Positions 35,553 through 61,609 are shown, counted from the whole stretch's first letter. The stretch: 62,230 nt of DNA, filler included, from Candidatus Delongbacteria bacterium (GCA_016937995.1; 6 parts of 6 records of this genome joined end to end with filler, not necessarily neighbours in it), one strand, 5' to 3'. Program-made: numbers and translations. Notes: a model not told the origin generated them from the letters alone.

Positions 35553-35631
35553 ACCTCATACCTCATACCTCATACCTCATACCTCATACTTCATACTTCA
35601 TACTTCATACTTCATACTTCATACTTCATAC
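35553..35631. repeat. Heptamer tandem repeat (ACCTCAT)n grading into (ACTTCAT)n
   Basis: About 11 copies up to the contig end. Confidence 0.95.
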
Positions 35632-43276: not shown

Positions 43277-44149
43277 ATGAATGAAGAAGCTAAAGAGAAG
43301 TATCTCGATTTATTAAAACTTAAAAATTACAGTAAGGCCACGATAAAGTCTTACGGTCATTGCTTTGATCTGTTTTTGGAACATTTCAAAAATGTTGACA
43401 TTAATAATCTTACTAAAGACGACATCACAAGTTTTCTAATAAAAGAACATGAAAAAGGCTTATCATACGGTTATCAGAATCAGATAATCAATGCAATTAA
43501 GTTTTATTACGAGAAAGTTCTTAAGCAAAAGAGAGAACTTTATGATATCCCAAGAGCAAAAAGACCACAAAAACTTCCAGTTGTTTTCAGCGAAGAAGAA
43601 GTGCTCAAATTGATTGGAAGCATTGATAATTTAAAACATAAATCCATATTATACCTTATTTACTCTGCCGGATTAAGGATCAGTGAAGCAGTGAACATGA
43701 AAATTGCCGATATCGACTCAAAAAGAAATGTAGTGATCGTACGGGGCGGAAAAGGTAAAAAAGACAGGACAACACTTCTTTCAGAGAAATTACTTTTAAT
43801 GTTAAGAAAGTATTATGTACAGTTTAGACCTAAAGATTTTCTGTTTGAAGGAGAAAATGGTGGTCAATATTCTATAAAAAGTATACAGAATGTTTTCAAC
43901 AGGGCATTAACGAGATCTGGGATAAGAAAAAAAGCAACAGTACATTCATTAAGACACAGCTTTGCAACTCATCTACTTGAACACGGGACAGACTTAAGAT
44001 ATATTCAGCAATTACTGGGACATAACAGTTCAAAGACAACAGAGATATATACACACATTACGAAGAAGGGAATGGACAAAATAAAGAGTCCACTAGACAA
44101 CCTAGAAGTACAGGAGAAAAAAACGCCATATGGCGGTTTGCCATTTTAA
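43277..44149 (+). CDS. Tyrosine recombinase, integron-integrase-like but without the IntI-specific insertion
   Basis: SAM-like N-terminus (YS..TIKSY, QNQIINAIKFYY), YSAGLRISE, GKGKKDR, HSLRHSFATHLLE, LLGH..KTTEIYTH; short segment between DR and FLF. Confidence 0.93.
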   Translation: MNEEAKEKYLDLLKLKNYSKATIKSYGHCFDLFLEHFKNVDINNLTKDDITSFLIKEHEKGLSYGYQNQIINAIKFYYEKVLKQKRELYDIPRAKRPQKLPVVFSEEEVLKLIGSIDNLKHKSILYLIYSAGLRISEAVNMKIADIDSKRNVVIVRGGKGKKDRTTLLSEKLLLMLRKYYVQFRPKDFLFEGENGGQYSIKSIQNVFNRALTRSGIRKKATVHSLRHSFATHLLEHGTDLRYIQQLLGHNSSKTTEIYTHITKKGMDKIKSPLDNLEVQEKKTPYGGLPF

Positions 44150-44203
44150 CCAGGCACAAACTGGACAGCAAAACGCCATATGGCGTTTTGCCGCACGTTA
44201 GCT
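44120..44203 (+). other. Putative primary (attI-like) recombination site
   Basis: Direct repeat AAAACGCCATATGGCG(G/T)TTTGCC at 44120 and 44170; 24-bp perfect palindrome 44168-44191; ends in G|TTAGCT. Confidence 0.65.
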
Positions 44204-44314
44204 GAAATACCACACACAAAGGAGCTTTTTTATATGATCTATATTTTAGTTGAAATTAATAAAATATATTTGTACAATTCACTAGAAATCCAGTAATTAT
44301 CAGGAGGAAGTAAG

Positions 44315-44485
44315 ATGCAAAAACTTATCACGATTTATGTAAACGGTTTTAGACTAGAAGAATTTTCTGCTAATGAACATTTAAATAAATATCTTAGTGA
44401 TGGATGGTACATTGTTTCTGTTACGACAGCAGGTTCTGGTGAAAAAGTCAAATGGTTAATAACTGTTGTTTTAGGTAAAGACTGA
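44315..44485 (+). CDS. Small 56-aa protein, DUF4177-like
   Basis: Not in the ORF track; CAGGAGG RBS; MQKLITIYVNGFRLEEFSANEHLNKYLSDGWYIVSVTTAGSGEKVKWLITVVLGKD. Confidence 0.65.
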   Translation: MQKLITIYVNGFRLEEFSANEHLNKYLSDGWYIVSVTTAGSGEKVKWLITVVLGKD

Positions 44486-44492
44486 GCTGTAT

Positions 44493-45308
44493 ATGGCAAT
44501 GTTTATTAATATTTCTTGGCCACAAAACAAAAGGTTGAAAGTAGCAACTTCGGCTCATGCGTTCTCTTTGATACATAATTCTCTGAATACCTCAACTTTT
44601 GTTTCAATGATCGGGAGTGATTTGATTGTTAATGGATTATTTGACATCACGAACCTTGTTCCAGATGTTGATCGATATCGTATTTTGTCAAATGTACTAT
44701 CTTCACATAATAATTGTACGGTTTGTCCAAATAATAATAACTTTAAAGATATATTACCCAGCCAGTCATCCTCTTTTGATAAAACGATTGTTCTAGTTAT
44801 CGAATCACCTCACGATCATGAATTTATCTATTTAAATAATAATCTTGTCCCAATTGCACCCGCACAAGCTAATAAGAAAAAAAGAGGGGCTGGATTCGCT
44901 ATAGAAAATTATTTGAAATGTAACATCCTATCACAGATATCAAACTATCCACAACATAATGTCAGAATTATTATAGCTAATCCAATTCAATTTCAGACTT
45001 CGTTATTTGTAATTCATAAGAAAGGCGGTCGAATAGCAAAAGATCTTAGAAATTCGGTTTGGCAAGCCCTATGGCGTCAAAAAAATATTCGGGCCAATTT
45101 TTTTGATAGATTAAAATGCTATGAGCCGGATTTAATAATTAATTCTTGTACTGGGGGTCAAGATAAACGTGGTAGCTTGAATTATTTTATTAGTAAATTT
45201 CTTGTCCAGCACAGTTTTAGCTATATTTCTTATAAAACAGGTCATCCTTCATCTGTATGGTACAGAACAATAAACGGTCGTCCTTTTGCGAAGGTAACAA
45301 AAATATAG
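44493..45308 (+). CDS. Hypothetical protein, possible uracil-DNA glycosylase superfamily fold
   Basis: IVLVIESP, PDLII and GHPSS motifs in the order expected for UDG-like proteins. Confidence 0.55.
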   Translation: MAMFINISWPQNKRLKVATSAHAFSLIHNSLNTSTFVSMIGSDLIVNGLFDITNLVPDVDRYRILSNVLSSHNNCTVCPNNNNFKDILPSQSSSFDKTIVLVIESPHDHEFIYLNNNLVPIAPAQANKKKRGAGFAIENYLKCNILSQISNYPQHNVRIIIANPIQFQTSLFVIHKKGGRIAKDLRNSVWQALWRQKNIRANFFDRLKCYEPDLIINSCTGGQDKRGSLNYFISKFLVQHSFSYISYKTGHPSSVWYRTINGRPFAKVTKI

Positions 45309-45337
45309 GATAATATCTCTCAGTGTGTGGTACTTGC

Positions 45338-45409
45338 AGCTAACATTGGAAAAATGACTTGACCCGAGTTATATTTTATCTAGTGAGCTTTTTTCCATGA
45401 CCGTTATGA
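45338..45409 (+). other. attC-like hairpin site, copy 1
   Basis: AGCTAACATTGGAAAAA...TTTTTCCATGACCG|TTATGA. Confidence 0.8.
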
Positions 45410-45481
45410 TCAATTGCAACTTTAAATAACGGTAGAGGAGGTAGAAGATGTTATACAAGCCTATTTAACCCGATTAAAAAA

Positions 45482-51486: not shown

Positions 51487-52415
51487 TGCAAAAATTTGAC
51501 AGATTAAACAGGATCGGGGATCACTGGAAAAAAAAGTACGGTGCAAAAACCTATAAGCTTATATTCAGAGGTGAATTTACCTGTCCGAACATCGACGGTA
51601 GTCTGAGCAATAAAGGCTGTATTTACTGTAATATGAGATCCCTGGAACCTTTGATAGACAGTAAAAATATCGAAGGACATATAAAATATCTGGAAGATAG
51701 GAATAATGCAGAACTTTTTATAGCTTTCTTTCAGGATTTTTCATCGACCTATCCGGTTCATTCCATTGAAAATAAACATGACTATCTTAAAAAATTGTAC
51801 ACGAGTTCTATTGATAATGATAAAGTTGTCGGCATTTCAATTTCCACAAGACCTGACTGCATAAACACTGAAGTTCTTGATATCCTGGCAGAATTGCAAA
51901 AGGACGTAATAATTGAACTCGGATTACAGACAACCTGTGAAAAAGATATTAAATGGATAAACCGGGGATATGCAAACGATCAATTTATTGAAAGTGTCGA
52001 AATGATAAGATCTTACGGTTTTAATACCGTAGTGCACATTATATTAGGACTGCCAAATGAAACTGACCGGACGATATTAGAAAATGTAAAATTCATCAAT
52101 GCTCTTAAAATTCACGGAATTAAATTTCACCAGTTGATGGTTTTAAAGAACACTGAATTGGAAAATATTTTCAATAAAGGTGAGGTGAACGTATTAGATA
52201 TTCAGGAGTATTTCCGGAGAGTTTCGCTGTTCTTAGCCCATCTTGATAAGAATATCATTATTCACAGACTTTATGGTGACGCACCGAAAAAAGATCTAAT
52301 TGAGCCTCTATGGTGTCTAAATAAAACAGGTATTCAGGATAAATTATTCGATTATCTTGAAGAGCATAATATATGGCAGGGAATGCACCCAAGACCCACA
52401 ACCCATAACCCATAA
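51486..52415 (+). CDS. TIGR01212/YhcC family radical SAM protein
   Basis: FTCPNIDG..GCIYC, STRPDC, ELGLQT, HIILGLP motifs. Confidence 0.9.
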   Translation: MQKFDRLNRIGDHWKKKYGAKTYKLIFRGEFTCPNIDGSLSNKGCIYCNMRSLEPLIDSKNIEGHIKYLEDRNNAELFIAFFQDFSSTYPVHSIENKHDYLKKLYTSSIDNDKVVGISISTRPDCINTEVLDILAELQKDVIIELGLQTTCEKDIKWINRGYANDQFIESVEMIRSYGFNTVVHIILGLPNETDRTILENVKFINALKIHGIKFHQLMVLKNTELENIFNKGEVNVLDIQEYFRRVSLFLAHLDKNIIIHRLYGDAPKKDLIEPLWCLNKTGIQDKLFDYLEEHNIWQGMHPRPTTHNP

Positions 52416-52470
52416 CCCACAACCCACAACCCATAACCCATAACCCACAACCCATAACCCATAACCCACA
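52394..52470. repeat. Heptamer tandem repeat (ACCCAYA)n
   Basis: 11 copies; supplies the last codons and the stop of the radical SAM gene. Confidence 0.95.
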
Positions 52471-52608
52471 ACTATCTTTTAACTATGTTAATCCAATTAT
52501 TTCACATATATTTCATAATATCTAACTGAAAAAAATAAAAATATACATATATTGACATCTGTCAATTTTTGTTTTATATTACTTTCAAACTTTAAAAGGA
52601 GAAACACA

Positions 52609-52948: not shown

Positions 52949-52950
52949 CG

Positions 52951-55900
52951 TTATGATCAATTGCAACTTTAATGACGGTAGGAGGTAAAGATGAACAAGC
53001 CTATTTAACCCGATTTAAAAAATAATTATCTTGTTTCGGGAACAAGAAAACACTACATTAATCTAAACAATATTTTACAAACTAGAGGTATCGTATGAAG
53101 AAAATAGCATTACTCTTAGTTTTTATTGTATCATTGTCTTTATGGGCAATGTCAGATACAGCTAATACAGAACCCGTTGTAAAAGAAAATTCTCAGAAGC
53201 TAACACAAGAAGAACTGCATAATATTGCAGTAAACTACTATCATTACATGTTTGAAGAAGAACATGAATGGAAAGGTATTAGAGTTGATTCTTCACAATC
53301 AGTAATCAAAGATATCTTTCCGTATGTGGAAGATGGAATAACTCTCTTCTATACCGTTAATTTCAATCCTGAAGGACGAATTTATACTCCCGCATATAAA
53401 TTTGTATCAAGACCTATCTTCAAAAGAGGTAGTGGTACAGCAAAAAAAATAAAATCTATAGACGATAAAAAAGCTATGCCCTTCGCGGCAATGCGAGGTT
53501 TCCACTCCATAAGAGAAAAGACATTACAGGGGCTTCAAGGTAAGTGTGAACAAACCGAAAAACAAAAAAAGATGTGGGAAAAATTCAATAAACCACCTAA
53601 TCAGTTTCATGAAAGGGTTAACCATGGATTAGATTTCCGTCCTCCAAAGTGGTGGCTCGAAAAAAAAAACTTTAAAAGTAACAAAAATACTGAAGGAATG
53701 ATCCAGACGGAGTGGAATCAGTATTTCCCCTTTAATAATGACTGTCCGTCACACTCGACAGGTAAAACACTTGTAGGTTGTACACCTCTTGCAATGTCTC
53801 AACTTATGAAATATTATGAATATCCTGAGACTGGTTTAAGTTATAATTCATATGCCTGGTTTAACGGCGAAATCATAAGAACTTTAGAAGCTGACTTTGG
53901 ACTCACAACTTATGACTGGGCTAATATGCCTGCTTATGCAGATTCTTCAAGTTCTCAAACAGAACAGGATGCACTCTCAACTCTTTGTAAGCATGCTGGT
54001 ATTGCCTTAAATGCTGATTATGGTGTTGCTTTAGGCACAGCAGCTTGGGCTGATGACATACCTCACAATATTACAAAATATTTTAACTATACTTCCCAAT
54101 TAATGTCAGAAGTTGCGTGGTATCCTAATGGATTGGCAGACTGGAAAGATTCTCTGATCACTGCTATGCAGAACGGTAAACCTGTTTTATACTCTGCCTT
54201 TTGGAATAGTGACGATCCGGGCAGTCATACTTGGATAGTAGATGATTATAAAATTTCTACAGATGAATTTCACTTTAATATGGGCTGGTATCATCCTGAT
54301 AGTTTAGATTGGAATGACTGGTATCCTGCAGATGATTATTTGAAAGATCAAGATAAAGGTATATTCAATATCATACCAGATAGATCTACAAATGCTCTGC
54401 CTATTCCATATACCGAAACTTTTGAAAACACTTATACAAGTACAACTGTAGCAAGCTCACAAATTCCCAAATACATTGGAATAGAAGAAAACAATTATAG
54501 TACATTACCAGATGTCGGTTACCAAAACAGTAATGTACTTGCAAGATTCTACGTACCTGATTCAGAAGATAGTTTTATTATAAAAAAGATAAACCTTACC
54601 ACTGATTCCGTTCCAATACTTCGTTACAAATACAGGATCAACGATTATCAGAATATCGTAGAAGGTGACAGCCTAATAATTGAAGTTTCTAAAGATAACA
54701 GGCTTTCATGGAAAAAAATCTCTAAAATTGATCATTTGAACTACAATAACACATCATATTATGAAGATAAGATCGTAAGTCTGAATAACTTCAAAAATGA
54801 AATCGTAAACATACGATATCATTTTTACTCGGTCGACAATGCAAATGCATATGATTATTACATCGACGACATCAAAGTTGGTGCACTTGGTTTGCATTTC
54901 ACAGATATATCTTACGATGATATTTTACAGCCTAAGGATGCACAATCTATCAAGATAACACCTTCAATTACACCACCGAAATCCAAAGGTTTTGAAGATT
55001 ATGACATGGCTATGGATTTCTATGTAAAAGAAGATAGCACAGCTATGGATTATATCTTAATGTATTCTGATGAATTACTTGAAAATGGAGTATTTGAATA
55101 TCTTGATTGGGATACGATGGATTTGATGGGTAAAAAATATCTGATTAAAGCAGTTGCAAGAACAAAAAGCAATAATACTTCACTAGACAGCACAGAAACA
55201 AGAGTACAATTCAGTGGGAGAAAATGTTATGTAACTTATCCGGTCAGTTATCAGGATTCAACTACTTTCTTTGATGTTGAGTTACCATTGACAATTGAAG
55301 GATACATTGAAGCTGAGTTGTCCTTCAGAGACACTCTTGAGAGTGGTATAGTTTTAGTTGGTGGCTGGATCTATGATTTCCAGAAAAAATTGTGGACTTA
55401 TGAAGATGAATATGCAGACTCTAACTATTTCTGTGATCCAGAAAATTATATTTATGCTTTATCTAAAGAAGAAAGAGATAAGGCAGTATTTGAATATAAA
55501 GGAGCTGACTTAGATTATATTCCTGAGCACAGATATAGCAAAAATAACCTCAAAAGAATATTACAAGCACAATCTGGAACGGTTAAAGATATAAATCCAA
55601 GTGTAATTTCTAAGTCTCCAAAAGAGCATTTTCAATATAACCCCTTATCTGATCTTCAAAGTCTAAGTAAATATTATTCTAAAATTGAGGATGAGAGTAA
55701 ATTTGATTCAAGAGACATGGTACATTTTGATACAATTTATTATGAACACGCTACTTCTCTGAATCTGTTTCCAGGATTTTATGGTTTTGAAGGAGGTGCG
55801 TACTATAGTGAAAACCTTTGGGAACCAATAGCTGAACGTGACTACCCAATGATCTTGATTCCTAACTGGAAATTGAAGCTAAAAGAAGACCCTTGGTATC

Positions 55901-57391
55901 CTTATGCTATACCTCACAATTCGTTAAGAGAGTACGCACAGAATGATGATGTATACATAGAAATTTGGAGACCTTTTAATGAACCTAATGGTTATAATAT
56001 CGTCTATATTAACATTGCAAGAGATTCTGACAATACTGAAGTTGCTTCATTTCAAATAGATTACAATACAAAAGGCAAAAGATATGTTGAATGGGCAACA
56101 GATGGCACAACTCAACCCGGATTTTATACTATTACAGCTCATGAACAGTTTGAAGGTACGTCTGTAATTGTTTATCAGAGTGAAACTATTCAGATCTGCC
56201 CATTATACGAACACTGGGAGCACAGCGGTACATGGTCAGATATTTGGGAAATAAATGCGGATTCCGATTATTTTAAAATGTACAACTTTATTGCAGGTCA
56301 TCCTGGAATAGGAAATTATTCTCTCGGTGCAGCGTACGACACAGAAACTGGCGAATCTATTGACGAAAGTCTTTCATCTGATGTTGTTTCATTTAACCTT
56401 CAACACGATGCTGTATTTGAAGTTTTCATGGGATTACCTTATGATAGTGGCTTTGAAGATATGTATGCAGATTATAAAGTTCTCTTATCAAAAGATGGAG
56501 GAACAAGTTGGACAGCAATCGCATCAGCAGATAAAGATTTCTATAGTTCATTAGGATTTTCAGCTACTCCAGGTTACAAATTCTATAACTGGTTTACTAC
56601 AATAAAAAATACTGCATCAGAAGAAAACATGATCGTTAAATTCGTATCACAAAACCAAATTGCTCCGCAAGATACAATATCACAACAAATTTGCTTTGAT
56701 GAAATACAAATCAGATACAGAACTGAACCAGTTCCTGACGGAGGTCAAAATTTTGCAGGTATTACGGATGGTAGTAAAGTAGATTTAAGCTGGGATGCAC
56801 CTGTTTCAAAAGGATTACCATTAAACTCTTACTTAATCTATAGAAATGGATTACCTCTTTTTCAGACAACTTCAACCACGCATACTGATTATTCGATAAT
56901 TGAAGATACAATGTATAATTACTCAATTGTTGCCTTTTATGAAGATGCTACAACCGGAGCTACAGATTTTTCATCAATGCTTGATTGTAGTGTAGATATT
57001 TTTGTGTCTTCTATGACTACACCTGCGAATGTTACTATAGCTGAGAATGCAACGAATGTAACAATTACATGGGATGCTGTTACAGGAGCATCAAGTTATA
57101 AAGTATACTCTTCATCCGATCCATACGGAACATTTTCAGAGAATACTAGTGGTTCATTCAATGGTGAGCAATGGGTTGCTCCTCTTACTGAAAGCAAATT
57201 GTTTTATTATGTAGTAGCTACAGATGTTAGTAAGGAAAACAAGAAAATTACTAAAGAAAGAGAATATCGGGTTAAATAGGCTTTTTTTAAGACTACCTGA
57301 TAAAGTTGCAACAGATCATAACATTGGCAAAATATCAATGGTTACTTAGAGAGTTAACTAGGTTTATCCACACTACTTTTTGCCATGACCG
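52951..57391 (+). mobile_element. Large gene cassette (about 4.44 kb) carrying a C10 protease
   Basis: Starts G|TTATGATCAATTGCAACTTTA, ends TAAAGTTGCAACAGATCATAAC plus the hairpin site; second inverted block of 18/18. Confidence 0.75.
53095..57279 (+). CDS. Secreted peptidase C10 (streptopain/SpeB family) with prodomain and multidomain tail
   Basis: Signal peptide; WNQYFPFN, VGCTPLAMSQLM (Cys), SHTWIVD (His), HFNMGW; FN3-like C-terminal modules. Confidence 0.88.
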   Translation: MKKIALLLVFIVSLSLWAMSDTANTEPVVKENSQKLTQEELHNIAVNYYHYMFEEEHEWKGIRVDSSQSVIKDIFPYVEDGITLFYTVNFNPEGRIYTPAYKFVSRPIFKRGSGTAKKIKSIDDKKAMPFAAMRGFHSIREKTLQGLQGKCEQTEKQKKMWEKFNKPPNQFHERVNHGLDFRPPKWWLEKKNFKSNKNTEGMIQTEWNQYFPFNNDCPSHSTGKTLVGCTPLAMSQLMKYYEYPETGLSYNSYAWFNGEIIRTLEADFGLTTYDWANMPAYADSSSSQTEQDALSTLCKHAGIALNADYGVALGTAAWADDIPHNITKYFNYTSQLMSEVAWYPNGLADWKDSLITAMQNGKPVLYSAFWNSDDPGSHTWIVDDYKISTDEFHFNMGWYHPDSLDWNDWYPADDYLKDQDKGIFNIIPDRSTNALPIPYTETFENTYTSTTVASSQIPKYIGIEENNYSTLPDVGYQNSNVLARFYVPDSEDSFIIKKINLTTDSVPILRYKYRINDYQNIVEGDSLIIEVSKDNRLSWKKISKIDHLNYNNTSYYEDKIVSLNNFKNEIVNIRYHFYSVDNANAYDYYIDDIKVGALGLHFTDISYDDILQPKDAQSIKITPSITPPKSKGFEDYDMAMDFYVKEDSTAMDYILMYSDELLENGVFEYLDWDTMDLMGKKYLIKAVARTKSNNTSLDSTETRVQFSGRKCYVTYPVSYQDSTTFFDVELPLTIEGYIEAELSFRDTLESGIVLVGGWIYDFQKKLWTYEDEYADSNYFCDPENYIYALSKEERDKAVFEYKGADLDYIPEHRYSKNNLKRILQAQSGTVKDINPSVISKSPKEHFQYNPLSDLQSLSKYYSKIEDESKFDSRDMVHFDTIYYEHATSLNLFPGFYGFEGGAYYSENLWEPIAERDYPMILIPNWKLKLKEDPWYPYAIPHNSLREYAQNDDVYIEIWRPFNEPNGYNIVYINIARDSDNTEVASFQIDYNTKGKRYVEWATDGTTQPGFYTITAHEQFEGTSVIVYQSETIQICPLYEHWEHSGTWSDIWEINADSDYFKMYNFIAGHPGIGNYSLGAAYDTETGESIDESLSSDVVSFNLQHDAVFEVFMGLPYDSGFEDMYADYKVLLSKDGGTSWTAIASADKDFYSSLGFSATPGYKFYNWFTTIKNTASEENMIVKFVSQNQIAPQDTISQQICFDEIQIRYRTEPVPDGGQNFAGITDGSKVDLSWDAPVSKGLPLNSYLIYRNGLPLFQTTSTTHTDYSIIEDTMYNYSIVAFYEDATTGATDFSSMLDCSVDIFVSSMTTPANVTIAENATNVTITWDAVTGASSYKVYSSSDPYGTFSENTSGSFNGEQWVAPLTESKLFYYVVATDVSKENKKITKEREYRVK

Positions 57392-57394
57392 TTA
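57316..57394 (+). other. attC-like hairpin site, copy 2
   Basis: TCATAACATTGGCAAAA...TTTTTGCCATGACCG|TTA at the contig end. Confidence 0.8.
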
Positions 57395-57580: not shown

Positions 57581-57622
57581 GGATTGTAGTACTTACTCTT
57601 AAAAAAAAGAAAAATGAACAAG

Positions 57623-57704
57623 GGCTAACATTGGCAAAACATCAATGGGTTACTTGGATATTTAACTCGCTCTTCCCCACTGGTTTTTGCCATGACCGAT
57701 ATAA
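57623..57704 (+). other. attC-like hairpin site, copy 3 (non-canonical right junction)
   Basis: GGCTAACATTGGCAAAA...TTTTTGCCATGACCG|ATATAA. Confidence 0.8.
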
Positions 57705-60700
57705 GTACTATAAGTCCATCCGTCAGGTAATTGTCCGTTATTCTCAAAACTCTCAATTATTGGTAATATCGAGCTGCCTGAATTTGAACTTACGGTTATA
57801 CTTTTTGTGTCAGTTGCCCAGGATTCACCGATCGGTGTAGTATATTTTGCGATGACATAATAACTGTAAGTACCCTCAGGCAGGAAGCAATCTGTAAAAG
57901 TTAAATTTGTTGTAGAATTTAAATAACTTCCATTTCTGTATATGTCATATTCGATTGTCCCTGTTTTCGGTGGAGACCAGCTGAGGATAGCATTGGATTG
58001 TTCAGTACCTGTTCCGAGTGCCAACTCAAATGATTGCGGTCTTGGGAATGTAAGTTCTGTTGTAGTAAGACTGATATTACAGTCGAAAACAGATGTTTCC
58101 TTCAAAGTAGGATGATCTTCCAGCTTTCTGGTTATGGCGTATTCATAAGTTGTATTACTTTCAATTGCAGTATCAATAAATGTAGTTTCAACTGTTGTTC
58201 CTATTTTTGATCCGTCTCTGTATACATTAAAAGTATCGAGAGTTCGCGGTGAATCCTTTTTATAGTTCATTAGCCAGATAATACTGTTTGATTTATCTCC
58301 CTGGGTAGCTGATATGATAGTTGGAGCTTCAGGTACTTCTTCCTTAGTATACATTATTTTAATGTCGTCAATCGCGAAGGTTTGTTCTTTCCATGTCCAG
58401 TCATATGGTGTATAAAATTCCGGCTTTTCTGCTATTACAAATTTAAGCTGCACTTTAGTACCTGCCGATACAGAATCCCCTAAAGAGTAAAAGAACGGTC
58501 GCATACAATTCATCCAGCCTTCTGCTTCTCCGAAATAATCATCATAATCATCCTGTACAGGTTCATACACAGTAAACCAAGCTCCATTATTTATCTTTGC
58601 CTGTACCAGATAACGCGCATAAAGAGGCTGCCATTGTGTAGAATCGTTATCTAAAACTTCTCTCGGTAAACTGACCCATGCGCTTAAAATAGTATGGTGT
58701 GTTTCATTCAATGTTATTTCAGGTGTTACAATCGAAGTTGATACATGGTGATAAGTATCATAATAACCAAGAAGATTCTGCCATTCCAATGGATAATCAC
58801 CTGGAGATATTGATCTTCTGCTTATCCACCATTTGTCAGGATTAGCAGTACTTGAATTTTTGTCCCATCCTTCAGGCCAAAGGTACGGATAATCTTCAAA
58901 GTCATAATACATCGGTGGTATCTGTATCTCTTTTTCCTGCACGATATCTACACCAAGTGAATCATCATACCCAAACGCTTTTATCTGATAAAAGCCGGGA
59001 GTCTGATCATCAGATTTCACCCATCTCATTCCGTCTGACAATCTGAATGAGTCACCTGTTTCAGTACTTAATCCAACTGTTTTATTCTGATTAGAAAATA
59101 TCTGACTTCCAAAAATCCCTTCATTGGTTCTGGCAATCTCACTGCCGTTATGAGTTATTGTCAATGTGTCAATATAGACCGGAAAATCTGTGAATGGTCG
59201 CCAGATATAAACTTTAACATCCTGATTTTTTGAGTATTCTGTCTTTTCAACATATGGAATGAATCCATCTGCATAATATGTACTGTCACAATATAGAAAA
59301 TCACCATGAAGTTTCATTTTCCATGGAGGTATGATTATTTTTGTAGTATCGGGTAAAACTCCAATATATTCATCATCTGTAGGTTCTGCATCATATCCCC
59401 TTGCTATCAGATTATACACTCCCGGTTTCTCCAGATCGAATCTTTCATAACTCCATGTAACAGGATTATCTGTGTCTTTTGATGCTTTTGTTTCAGGTCG
59501 TTTCATTCGTTCATACACTACAGGAATATCATCTGATTTACCTGTAAATTTTAACGGTTCATTATTCCATGGCAATGCACCTGAATCAGTAGGCCATGTG
59601 TATTTATAATTTATAGGAATATCAGGAGTAAATTCATACATTGATAAAGTATCCAACTTAAAATCCTCGTTTATATTGCTACGATCTACGGAATTACTTT
59701 GGGTATCTACAATATCTCCCTCTACCGGGAACCCCAGAAAATCAGGCGTATATGATTCAAAATCCCATACACCATCAAATAAAGGTGTTGACATGGTATT
59801 TCCATCCCAGGATTTTCTTGTCGGATCAACTATTTTTGCATGGACTCCTTCACATACTTCAATATCATCTATCAGACAAAAATTCGAACTTCCTGAATAT
59901 TCAAATCTGAATCTGATGTTAACAACATCATTTTTATACTCATGAAGACTAACGATCTCATCTTTGAATTTATTCAAGTAATCATCAGCTTCGTAATTAT
60001 CTTTATCAAGGACATAAACCGATTCCCATGTCTCTCGGTTATCATTTGAAACTTCAACAATAACTGAATCACCTGTTGAGAAACCACCTTCATCAATAAT
60101 ATCAATCTTGAATTTAACTACAGGTGTTCTGTCGGAAGCACAGATCAGTTTTATTTTCTTGATGACGAACCATTGACTGTTATCTCCTGAATTTCTTATA
60201 TATAAACCTTTTTCTGTTGAGCCATATAATTGTGCGAAAAAAGTACTATAATTATCAAAATGATACAGTATGTGAAACTCCAATATTGGGCGGTATTTGA
60301 TAAATACTGCTTCCGATTATCACATCGTTAAAATCTTCTTTATAAGGTATAACCAATGCACTATCAGGATGATCCGGAATTGTATGAAATATTGCTTTTT
60401 GTGATGTTGTAATTGCTGACATAGGATACCAGTCATTGTAGGTTAAATTCGAATCTCCCATGTTAAAATTGAATTGATTATTGGGGTAATCATAACTGTC
60501 AATTATCCAGCTATGGTTGAAAGTTTGGGAGTTTATAGTTATGGGGCCACCATAAATAATAGGTTGTTTTCTAGCTAAACTCATCTTCAAACTATCAATC
60601 CAGATGTCTAAGGAAGCATACCAAGTTGCTTCTTCTCTTAATTGAGAAGTATAATTAAATTTTTTTGCTAATCCGTGAGGAATATCCTCTAAATTTTCAA

Positions 60701-61609
60701 TTGTAACAGTGGTTCCGTAATTCGCATTAACAGCTAATCCGGCATCTCTACATATTCTAGCTACAGCATCTCTTTGAATCTGAGTAGTCATAAGAGAATC
60801 ATAGGCAAGCATGTTTACCCAATCGTATGTTGTATTAGAAAAATTTTCTAATCCTTTGATAGGATAGCTATAAAATTTCATAAGTTGAGACATTGCTAAA
60901 GGACCGCAACCAACTAGAGTTGTATCTGATGTAATAGTATCAGTAGGACAAAAAATATAGAATGGGAACTTTTGGTGCCACTCAGTTTTAACTAAACCAA
61001 AAGTATTTTTTACTGATTTTGTTGTTTCAAAGCCTTTTTTTTTATCCACCAATCAGGTTGAGGGATACTTTTATCAAAATTTGCTTTTTCATGGAAACTA
61101 TCAGTTGGCACATTGAATTTTTCCCAACTCTTAATCTCTTTGTCATTTGTAAGTATTTTTCTATTTTTGAAAGCCTCAAGTAAACGATTGTAATAATCTA
61201 AATGAAAAGGTGTTAATCTTTTATCAGTGATTGAAAAATATCCTTCTTTAACTCCAAATGTCCATGCCCCATCCCCATTTTGGTCTATAGGAGAACCTAA
61301 ATTTTTATGAGCTTTTATAAGTACATGTCCGTCTGGATTAAAATTTACCATATAAAAAAGCGTTAGTGTATCAGCCTTGAAAGGAGTTATATTCTTAATA
61401 ATCCCTTCATTGTCTTTTCTAAACATTCCTTTAAATTCATGTTCTTCTTCAAACATAAATTTATAGTAATTAATTGCAATATTATGCAGTTCTTCCTGTG
61501 TTAATTTGTATTTCTCCATTTTAGGATCAATTTCACTGCTATCACCTGACATTGCTGTTACAGGTAAGAATAGTATGAGAAATACAAATATTATTAGTTT
61601 ACTTTTCAT
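57662..61609 (-). pseudogene. Paralogous C10 peptidase gene split by two frameshifts and truncated at the 3' end
   Basis: ORFs 61010-61609, 60255-61052 and 57662-60283 are collinear with 53095-57279 (KLTQEELHNIA.NYY..MFEEEHE; TLVGC.PLAMSQLMK; EVS.DNR..W; TPGFY). Confidence 0.85.

Follow-up and report, generated by a model that had tools for sequence, protein, structure and literature searches.

Integron biology has worked from the premises that only IntI, with its extra helix, recombines folded attC hairpins and that cassettes are small. The cassettes of classical integrons are small, large cargo being unusual among them, and Bacteroidota and candidate phyla have been reported to carry few integrons. 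Here, we describe a window of 62,230 nt, which consists of six contigs of one metagenome-assembled genome (MAG) of Candidatus Delongbacteria (G000; 2.75 Mb, 99 contigs, 97 per cent complete) joined by spacers of N, and focus on the contig that occupies positions 52949–57394 in its entirety (C23, 4,446 bp). C23 carries a single long open reading frame (ORF) for a protein of 1,394 aa and is probably one gene cassette of an integron-like site-specific recombination system. Judged from its sequences, this system is distinct from canonical integrons in recombinase, platform layout, and site anatomy: its arrays have nucleotide-precise boundaries at G|TT, adjoin recombinases without the extra helix, and commonly hold units of 4–10 kb. 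If the short recombinase is the enzyme, both the origin of integron chemistry and the spread of gene-capture platforms need revisiting.

In sedentary chromosomal integrons, such as that of Vibrio cholerae, arrays are co-oriented, sites are imperfect palindromes with an invariant AAC...GTT and a crossover at G|TT, and units usually consist of one ORF with the site 3' of it. Within one genome the sites are homogeneous, a tyrosine recombinase gene has an att site next to it, and the diverse cargo includes toxin, Abi, and nuclease genes. The Delongbacteria arrays are alike in these respects, their putative att site being an attI-like one. Unlike in chromosomal integrons, however, their recombinase has no IntI insertion, and its gene is directed into the array, with the attI-like site at the gene's 3' end. 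Classical attC sites are described (PMC5027507) as composed of R and L boxes with AAC/GTT, extrahelical bases, an unpaired central spacer, and a variable terminal structure. In the present sites the L stem is a perfect one of 8 bp and the internal loop is asymmetric (2 × 5 nt), whereas attC sites have single extrahelical bases and a spacer of 5/6 nt. IntegronFinder (PMC4889954) defines the integrase by its IntI-specific region and names arrays without an integrase CALINs (attC-site clusters without an integron-integrase); Smyshlyaev et al. (PMC8138268) call the IntI insertion 'not fully conserved' in a subgroup of integron-like recombinases. Cassette ends here are self-complementary over about 22 nt, as opposed to 7 in classical integrons, and multi-kb, multi-gene units are common.

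The 'reverse' integrons of Treponema denticola are similar in that the integrase gene is oriented as the cassettes are. They differ in using an IntI with the insertion. In work attributed to Val and colleagues in 2005, CTX phage reportedly integrates through XerCD, which has no I2 helix, acting on a folded single-stranded hairpin attP at dif. That integration differs from the present system in being a single phage-genome event at dif carried out by the host Xer pair, with neither arrays nor cassettes. Gene modules bounded by Xer-type sites are described on Acinetobacter plasmids (pdif modules; PMC7399989), and 'reverse integron' is a term of 10.1101/2020.05.09.085589. The pdif sites are short 28-bp double-strand sites in alternating orientation, unlike ours in having no hairpin core and no AAC/GTT cassette ends. 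A literature search, partial for subscription journals, brought up no account of arrays of hairpin-bounded cassettes served by a relative of IntI that lacks the insertion.

Beyond C23 itself stands a wider proposition, for and against which we hold the case to be evenly balanced: that bacteria of the Fibrobacterota–Chlorobiota–Bacteroidota (FCB) group (Delongbacteria, Bacteroidota, Marinimicrobia, Cloacimonadota, and others) possess a second, undescribed kind of integron. Its integrase would be related to IntI but lack the I2 helix, with a gene that reads into the array and has attI at its 3' end, and its cassettes would have ends of about 22 nt that pair with each other around a hairpin core. 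The system would have no tight size limit and would carry cargo of several kb, for example large secreted enzymes or complete restriction-modification systems, and in the sampled population the C23 cassette would be undergoing active reshuffling now.

Anatomy and boundaries of the C23 cassette

The contig begins CG|TTATGA (CGTTATGATC) and ends CCG|TTA (GACCGTTA). The original prediction, that C23 is one unit bounded within a few bases of a crossover on both sides, is borne out by these termini and by an anatomy common to 25 other cassettes. The features of C23 are as follows.

52949–52950, + strand: CG, which would be the tail of the preceding site; predicted crossover between 52950 (G) and 52951 (T)
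52950–52971, + strand: cassette start arm, GTTATGAT (R' box), CAAT, TGCAACTTTA (second block); 22 nt, 91 per cent complementary to 57301–57322, with which it pairs
52980–53008, + strand: leader, with AGGAGG (52980–52985) and a five-codon ORF, ATG AAC AAG CCT ATT TAA (52991–53008), read from the sequence
52994–53014, + strand: left outer arm of an extended palindrome; 21 nt, 95 per cent complementary to 57266–57286
53095–57279, + strand: ORF of the C10 protease, 1,394 aa, from ORF and domain searches
57266–57286, + strand: right outer arm, holding the stop codon TAG (57277–57279), from the inverted-repeat search
57301–57322, + strand: cassette end arm, TAAAGTTGCA, ACAG, ATCATAAC (R'' box, terminal AAC at 57320–57322), from its pairing with the start arm
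57323–57391, + strand: hairpin core including an AT spacer, from covariance model R1 (69.6 bits), folding, and stem covariation
57325–57332, + strand: L'' of the hairpin core, TGGCAAAA, followed by a 45-nt variable loop
57378–57385, + strand: L' of the hairpin core, TTTTGCCA, followed by the spacer TGACC (57386–57390) and G (57391); crossover placed between 57391 and 57392
57392–57394, + strand: TTA, presumably the first bases of the next cassette or cassettes

We infer that the initial CG is the end of whatever site comes before the cassette, as CG is the suffix common to the ends of hairpin sites (..GACCG) and of the recombinase-proximal attI-like site (..GCACG), and that the final TTA is a prefix shared by cassette starts of the types TTAT.. 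and TTAG... The start of C23 reads GTTATGAT CAAT TGCAACTTTA, in agreement with the pattern GTTnnnnn-nAAT-block of 25 cassettes, and its opposite end is the complement of GTTATGAT CTGT TGCAACTTTA. The outer arm is an addition of C23 to the common anatomy; the stop codon had been predicted to lie inside an inverted arm of 18 bp, and it does lie within the arm, which measures 21 nt. In the window, TTTTTGCCATGACCGTTA (with up to three mismatches) occurs three times versus 0.05 expected, and the outer-arm 21-mer three times versus 0.00 expected; these counts far exceed expectation, and the pattern is therefore beyond chance. Joined at G|TT in silico, the ends of C23 form a hairpin of about 190 nt (−41 kcal/mol for the top strand and −42 kcal/mol for the bottom strand; z = −8 to −9.5 versus shuffles), whereas the site of contig C16 in its array context folds to −12.5 only.

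The 3' site of C23 reads, in order, ..AAC-AT-TGGCAAAA-loop-TTTTGCCA-TGACC-G|TT. A covariance model (R1), built from ten site copies of G000, finds 11 sites in that genome, of which the eleventh (C7:3996–4070) lies outside the training set, and sites in 14 of the 16 genomes of the phylum. When folded as a DNA single strand, each G000 copy forms a perfect 8-bp L stem and an R stem beginning AAC/GTT, and its internal loop is asymmetric, with 2 nt on the 5' and 5 nt on the 3' side; the extrahelical bases and the 5/6-nt unpaired central spacer of classical attC were not seen in R1-type folds, and some sites of genome G006 have one extra base in L'. AAC and GTT are without variation in the distinct aligned sites (given as 49, and as 48 of 48 rows), and four of the eight L-stem pairs show compensatory changes (e.g. 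GGCAAAA/TTTTGCC to GGCTATA/TATAGCC). In an alignment that is fitted to the model, which favours structure, 96.6 per cent of stem cells are paired, compared to 88.5 per cent after shuffling (none of 500 shuffles reaches the observed value); the L stem alone gives 95.3 per cent, and sliding the partner columns leaves only 39–55 per cent of cells paired.

Sites are arranged in co-oriented arrays. Among 150 R1 sites (four more fall outside these counts), mixed orientation occurs in none of the 34 contigs with at least two sites, and the 57 spacings between sites have a median of 1,321 bp, with 12 of at least 3 kb and 9 of at least 4 kb; some of the long ones may conceal sites that were missed. The array of six sites in G006:C25 has five intervals, all of which consist of a single ORF that shares the sites' strand and has its site immediately 3'. 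The cargo of this array and of G010:C13 differs from unit to unit and includes HEAT repeats, propellers, a 2'-5' RNA ligase, a YhcG nuclease, a zeta toxin, an AAA ATPase, and, in G010:C13, an FG-GAP/Laminin_G ORF of at least 845 aa. Units of G000 range from 1.1 kb with Abi_2 (C32) to a 3.9-kb unit of four genes in reverse orientation (C7), a 4.7-kb unit of three genes with type IX secretion system (T9SS) tails (C70), and a 10-kb unit that encodes a 1,578-aa fn3/FGE-domain protein and three nuclease- or Schlafen-like genes (C7). Cassette cargo is thus diverse overall, with defence genes among it. The cargo of C23 had been called unusually large, which is true in relation to classical integrons; within the present system, with 9 of 57 spacings at 4 kb or more, it belongs to the upper tail without being unique.

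The exact boundary of a unit was assessed by comparing its first 28 nt (from GTT) with its last 28 nt (to AAC) for 25 units from 15 loci (L055 and L086 overlap, with one unit counted twice). Beyond the invariant triplet, local complementarity between a unit's own ends scores 13.4 on average (range 9–18), versus 5.3 ± 1.8 against the ends of other units (95th percentile 8) and 5.4 between the arms on either side of a single site. In these 25 cassettes, the ~25 nt that open a unit hence pair with the ~25 nt that close it, rather than with those of its neighbour. Because pairing is between own ends and not across the site, each unit carries its own pair of ends, GTTnnnnn-nAAT-block and block'-ACnn-nnnnnAAC, and the switch from one unit to the next falls at the AAC/GTT triplet, with the crossover at G|TT.

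Inverted ends of 22 nt would also be expected of transposon-like units with terminal inverted repeats and a transposase encoded elsewhere. Such an origin is extremely unlikely, as the inverted ends vary between units whereas a transposase requires conserved ends, exactly one conserved hairpin core with invariant AAC/GTT stands between units, and the arrays are co-oriented and start at a recombinase gene. Moreover, no target-site duplication was seen, C23 encodes no transposase, and no transposase family (IS91-type or other) was found among the scanned ORFs downstream of recombinases.

A cassette of the integron-like system thus opens with a start arm (G|TTnnnnn-nAAT-~10 nt), which is followed by the cargo, by an end arm (~10 nt-ACnn-nnnnnAAC) complementary to its own start arm, and by the conserved core AT-TGGCAAAA-loop-TTTTGCCA-TGACC-G. 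In the mechanism that we propose, a unit would be excised when two such sites recombine at G|TT, and on the excised single strand both of its ends, together with the core, would fold into one long hairpin (~190 nt for C23). The unit would then be reinserted at another site or at an attI-like site (palindrome-xAC|GTT) 3' of a recombinase gene.

Recombinases and their attI-like regions

No canonical integron integrase was found in G000, in which no protein exceeds the TIGR02249 cut-off. The top matches, on contigs C16, C43, and C78, align in two pieces that skip model positions 179–239 (best split score, 134.6 + 102.7 bits). G000 has three IntI-related tyrosine recombinases, all with the full set of catalytic residues but without the IntI-specific insertion, that of C43 with an N-terminal extension of about 95 aa, and the acting enzyme is most likely one of these three. 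The locus on C16, which lies in the window, is laid out as follows.

43277–44149, + strand: IntI-related tyrosine recombinase without the IntI insertion, 290 aa, candidate enzyme
44110–44199, + strand: attI-like region, two palindromes (..AAACGCCATATGGCG..) followed by GCAC|GTT; crossover predicted between 44197 and 44198
44198–45403, + strand: first cassette, 1.2 kb, with ORFs of 56 and 271 aa, closing with a hairpin site at 45334–45410

The C16 recombinase aligns end to end with archaeal XerA structures and has 25 residues where VchIntIA (2A3V) has 68. The IntI-specific insertion of about 40 aa (the I2 helix) is absent in alignments with 2A3V and with the canonical IntI of G009:C68, and the latter alignment shows all catalytic positions retained. 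The recombinase is closer to a canonical IntI of the phylum (35–37 per cent identity, 150–177 bits) than to the Xer-like pair of G000 on C56 (28–30 per cent, 88–122 bits). The C16 protein falls below the NCBIfam equivalog cut-offs for XerD (192 versus 329.6) and XerC (191.9 versus 335.15), and with 217.7 bits it falls just below the cut-off of 220 for NF040815 (recomb_XerA_Arch, 'site-specific tyrosine recombinase/integron integrase'), which its relatives at loci L156 (225.4) and L106 (229.2) pass.

A fixed palindrome-xAC|GTT boundary adjoins the recombinase gene at its 3' end. In all eight recombinase loci with readable downstream sequence, from five genomes of the phylum, the stop codon is followed by one or more palindromes and xAC|GTTnnnnn-nAAT; the palindrome sequence varies between recombinase paralogues, and the first palindrome of C16 encodes the last residues of the recombinase. 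The start arm of the first C16 cassette, GTTAGCTG AAAT ACCACACAC, pairs with the cassette's own end at 45320–45344: 1.2 kb downstream of the gene stand the complement of the start arm, a hairpin site, and then the start of the next cassette. A hairpin site lies 1.2–1.3 kb downstream of the recombinase on both G000:C16 and G015:C104. The two proteins of the first C16 cassette (44315–45308) match no Pfam or NCBIfam family.

Could the arrays instead be ordinary CALINs, served by a canonical IntI that is missing from the MAG, with the short recombinases as unrelated neighbours? The sites do resemble attC in the AAC/GTT core and the R-L-loop-L-R layout (PMC5027507), some genomes have sites and no detected short recombinase, and the MAG is 97 per cent complete, its array regions being poorly assembled. 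Canonical IntI exceeds TIGR02249 in 2 of the 16 phylum genomes (G009:C68, ~400 bits; G004:C155, 336 bits). In G009, however, the first cassette beside the integrase ends in a classical-looking site (by eye, with 5-nt and 4–5-nt spacers and an extra G in one arm), and no R1-type site was found within 10 kb of that intI even with filters off; six R1-type sites occur elsewhere in the genome. Two kinds of cassette site hence coexist within one phylum. No IntI was found in G000, and cassette starts abut the 3' ends of short recombinases at the fixed xAC|GTT at every locus examined, across phyla. We therefore consider the CALIN explanation unlikely and retain the short recombinases as candidates. 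The G009:C68 locus (L083, 9628–11740) consists of a canonical integrase of 429 aa with an N-terminal extension, one cassette, and the classical-looking attC.

In a scan of one genome per species, at least 516 loci encode relatives of the recombinase. Among the best 80 (52–81 per cent identity), most are from Bacteroidota, with others from Cloacimonadota, Marinimicrobia, Ignavibacteria, Edwardsbacteria, and Spirochaetota; the closest belongs to a Candidatus Delongbacteria bacterium (81 per cent). In 37 of these 80, fewer than 600 nt separate the gene from the downstream contig end, versus 5 of 80 for the upstream end; of the 37, six or seven terminate with ..ACGTT and 0–4 further letters. Most of 21 inspected loci with longer downstream sequence show a palindrome and then x(A/T)(C/T)|GTT. 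Among 17 loci of other phyla examined by eye, 15 have a boundary of xAC, xAT, or xTC|GTT, and in ten the first unit ends with its own complementary ..AAC arm, a hairpin (5' spacer of 1–2 nt, 3' spacer of 5–6 nt), and GTT; the remaining seven show no clear unit end within 4 kb downstream. Among the ten are Nibribacter koreensis JCM 17917, a MAG of Spirosoma, and two complete chromosomes of Bacteroidota. The testable set of recombinase, attI-like site, and hairpin site thus exists in strains in culture, Nibribacter koreensis and Arcicella aurantiaca among them.

A long-read MAG holds three identical copies of recombinase plus site, from which three different sequences continue from GAT|GTT onward:

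L106, L107, and L108 (JBMNFX010000001.1, JBMNFX010000002.1): identical recombinase and site copies with restriction-modification sets downstream

These sets differ, one kind being type IIG-like and another type III Mod or Mod+Res. The Nibribacter and OY759717 genes are followed by rows of 5–6 small co-oriented ORFs, and eight of the nine ORFs scanned there match no Pfam family. Some relatives have N-terminal extensions of 200–260 aa, in which HARP domain matches are below the Pfam threshold (16.7, 22.1, and 14.7 bits versus a cut-off of 25) or, in one of four, absent.

The secreted protease cargo

C23 had been predicted to encode a secreted C10 protease of 1,394 aa, and the ORF, its N-terminus, and its domain content agree. 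By eye, the N-terminus resembles a signal peptide (MKKIALLLVFIVSLSLWA..). Residues 207–399 match Peptidase_C10 (PF01640) with 142.9 bits (gathering cut-off, 26), and the domain is intact. Its nearest solved relative is interpain A (3BBA, 88.8 bits), with which the catalytic Cys (VGCTPLA) and His (SHTWIVDDY) align, the Cys column being marked by the C-to-A zymogen mutant 3BB7. The cargo is thus probably an active, secreted C10 cysteine protease, homologous to interpain A and streptopain in its catalytic domain, with Cys and His conserved. Unlike these, it is 1,394 aa long, with a fused N-terminal module of 197 aa and about 1,000 further residues of no family. Residues 1–197 are homologous to stand-alone ORFs of about 200 aa, two of which are cassettes in the array of G015:C56.

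About 900 residues after the C10 domain are without a family, and the protease has no match in NCBIfam. Its final ~80 aa are common to well over 100 proteins of the phylum, as might be expected of a sorting or anchoring domain. No T9SS tail (Por_Secre_tail or CHU_C) was found on the last 105 aa even at E ≤ 1, and such tails are present on other proteins of G000. For this organism, a large extracellular protease would represent accessory, mobile cargo.

A second C10 protease lies on the minus strand of contig C24 (57495–62230) as three overlapping ORFs (61010–61609, 60255–61052, and 57662–60283) and matches the C23 protein up to residue 1311 only. The 3' end of this broken paralogue runs into a hairpin site:

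57619–57705, + strand: hairpin site of contig C24 (R1), with the right side GACCG|ATATAAG, not G|TT

The arrangement looks like an array end that recombined into a secondary site within a resident gene, now broken.

Contig ends and neighbours of C23

The original prediction attributed the breaks at both ends of C23 to neighbours that vary in the population, an account that the assembly evidence supports. Contig ends of this assembly overlap by 87 nt (k = 87), and C23 has no end overlap with any other contig of the bin. At least six other contig ends also stop at the predicted crossover, 0–3 nt from G|TT. C6 and C21 begin AAC|GTG(T/C)GGCAAAACGCC.., the reverse complement of ..GCC(A/G)CAC|GTT; C70 ends at the crossover with ..GGGCTAAC; C34 ends ..ACACAA, the complement of TTGTGT..; and, in genome G007, C80 ends ..CCGCACGTT. 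Both C6 and C21, which begin exactly at the predicted crossover, hold in their first 100 nt double-palindrome, attI-like copies without an intact recombinase gene alongside.

Logan contigs (k = 31) from two public runs of one study (X1, which may be the source sample, and X2) were aligned to C23. Those of X1 terminate exactly at 52949 and 57394, and the exact-match contigs of X2 extend 6 nt and 11 nt beyond the ends of C23. Other contigs agree with C23 over its first 37 or 77 nt and diverge after that, and look-alike sites run ..GACCGTT into a different cassette start (GTGGAAAAT..). Breaks with alternative continuations are the expected outcome of a de Bruijn graph for one unit with several neighbours. 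As part of the best explanation, then, C23 likely adjoins more than one neighbour on each side in the sampled population, and hence assemblers stopped 2–3 nt from the crossover.

A simpler possibility is that C23 ends in ordinary breaks at a dispersed repeat and that the match to the crossover is coincidental. The MAG does hold 11 site copies and at least two leader copies, summed depth in the end bins of C23 is about five times that in its body (~82 versus ~16), and many G000 contigs end in unrelated heptamer repeats. Yet the longest exact repeats between the terminal 150 nt of C23 and the rest of the MAG are 24 nt (left) and 19 nt (right), far shorter than the 87-nt overlap, so an ordinary long repeat does not explain the breaks. 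Both ends of C23 and the six or more other contig ends fall within 0–3 nt of G|TT, and own-end complementarity independently gives the same boundary. Coincidence is therefore highly improbable.

C23 might alternatively be mainly a free circle, either an excised cassette or a small plasmid, of which the contig is a linearised copy: its ends overlap by CGTTA, and joining them at G|TT yields a perfect extended hairpin. We regard this as very unlikely, since 5 nt does not amount to a k-mer overlap (87 nt is shared by other contig pairs), C23 has no replication gene, and the end-to-start joint (..GACCG|TTATGATC..) is not among the Logan contigs of the two runs, which rare forms can escape.

The missing joint, hardly informative either way in contigs that overlook rare forms, also stands among the points against the reading of C23 as a mobile cassette of a short-recombinase system. 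There are several more. No recombination event was observed. The recombinase family was found (E ≤ 1e-40) in only 6 of 16 phylum genomes versus 14 of 16 for the sites, and in genus g7 all five genomes have sites and no such recombinase, one of them with a canonical IntI. The candidate recombinase lacks the very helix that is reported to allow single-strand recombination; PMC7790495 presents the I2 helix as the innovation that led from double-strand to single-strand recombination. Stem covariation could also stem from a dimeric protein that reads both arms. Lastly, the closest homologue of the protease (G014:C320, 66 per cent identity, same genus) has a plain terminator after the gene and no site. 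The original prediction had named homologues without bounding sites as a point to check, and among five homologue loci examined two have a clear site, one a degenerate one, and two none. A site stands just 3' of the gene in G006:C142 (a 979-aa homologue) and directly after the gene in the ~4.4-kb unit of G011:C279 (a 996–1087-aa homologue); G010:C160 has a degenerate look-alike, and G013:C12 has no site in the stretch examined. The protease family therefore comprises both resident genes and cassettes. That the system shuffles large secreted proteins, as had been proposed, gains support from G011:C279, G006:C142, G010:C13, and G000:C70.

The first ~75 nt of the C23 cassette (52950–53025), which hold the start arm, AGGAGG, and the five-codon ORF (MNKPI*), form a shared 5' leader module. 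Leaders of this type stand right after hairpin sites, with different cargo behind, in three genomes (window positions 45403–45481 on C16, G003:C24:2294–2339, G003:C105:2915–3009, and G014:C158:695–764), and in the contigs of run X2 the leader stands before at least two further sequences.

Tandem 7-nt repeats (GAAGTTA, ACCTCAT/ACTTCAT, and ACCCACA/ACCCATA) occur at many G000 contig ends, and in the window at 1–96, 35553–35631, and 52373–52484; they are a separate cause of assembly breaks. A 20-nt 'empty' unit (GTTGTGTACACTTCCACAAC) also occurs six times in G000, with ATTGGCAAAATGGC..ATCATCTATGGGTCCGAATGCTTTAGCA behind it, a half site that has a conserved tail (C32:5971–6060, C39:612–700, C43:19–110, C68 on the minus strand, C13:1680–1760, and C19:25690–25770). 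Together, the 'empty' unit and the half site possibly mark the terminus of an array.

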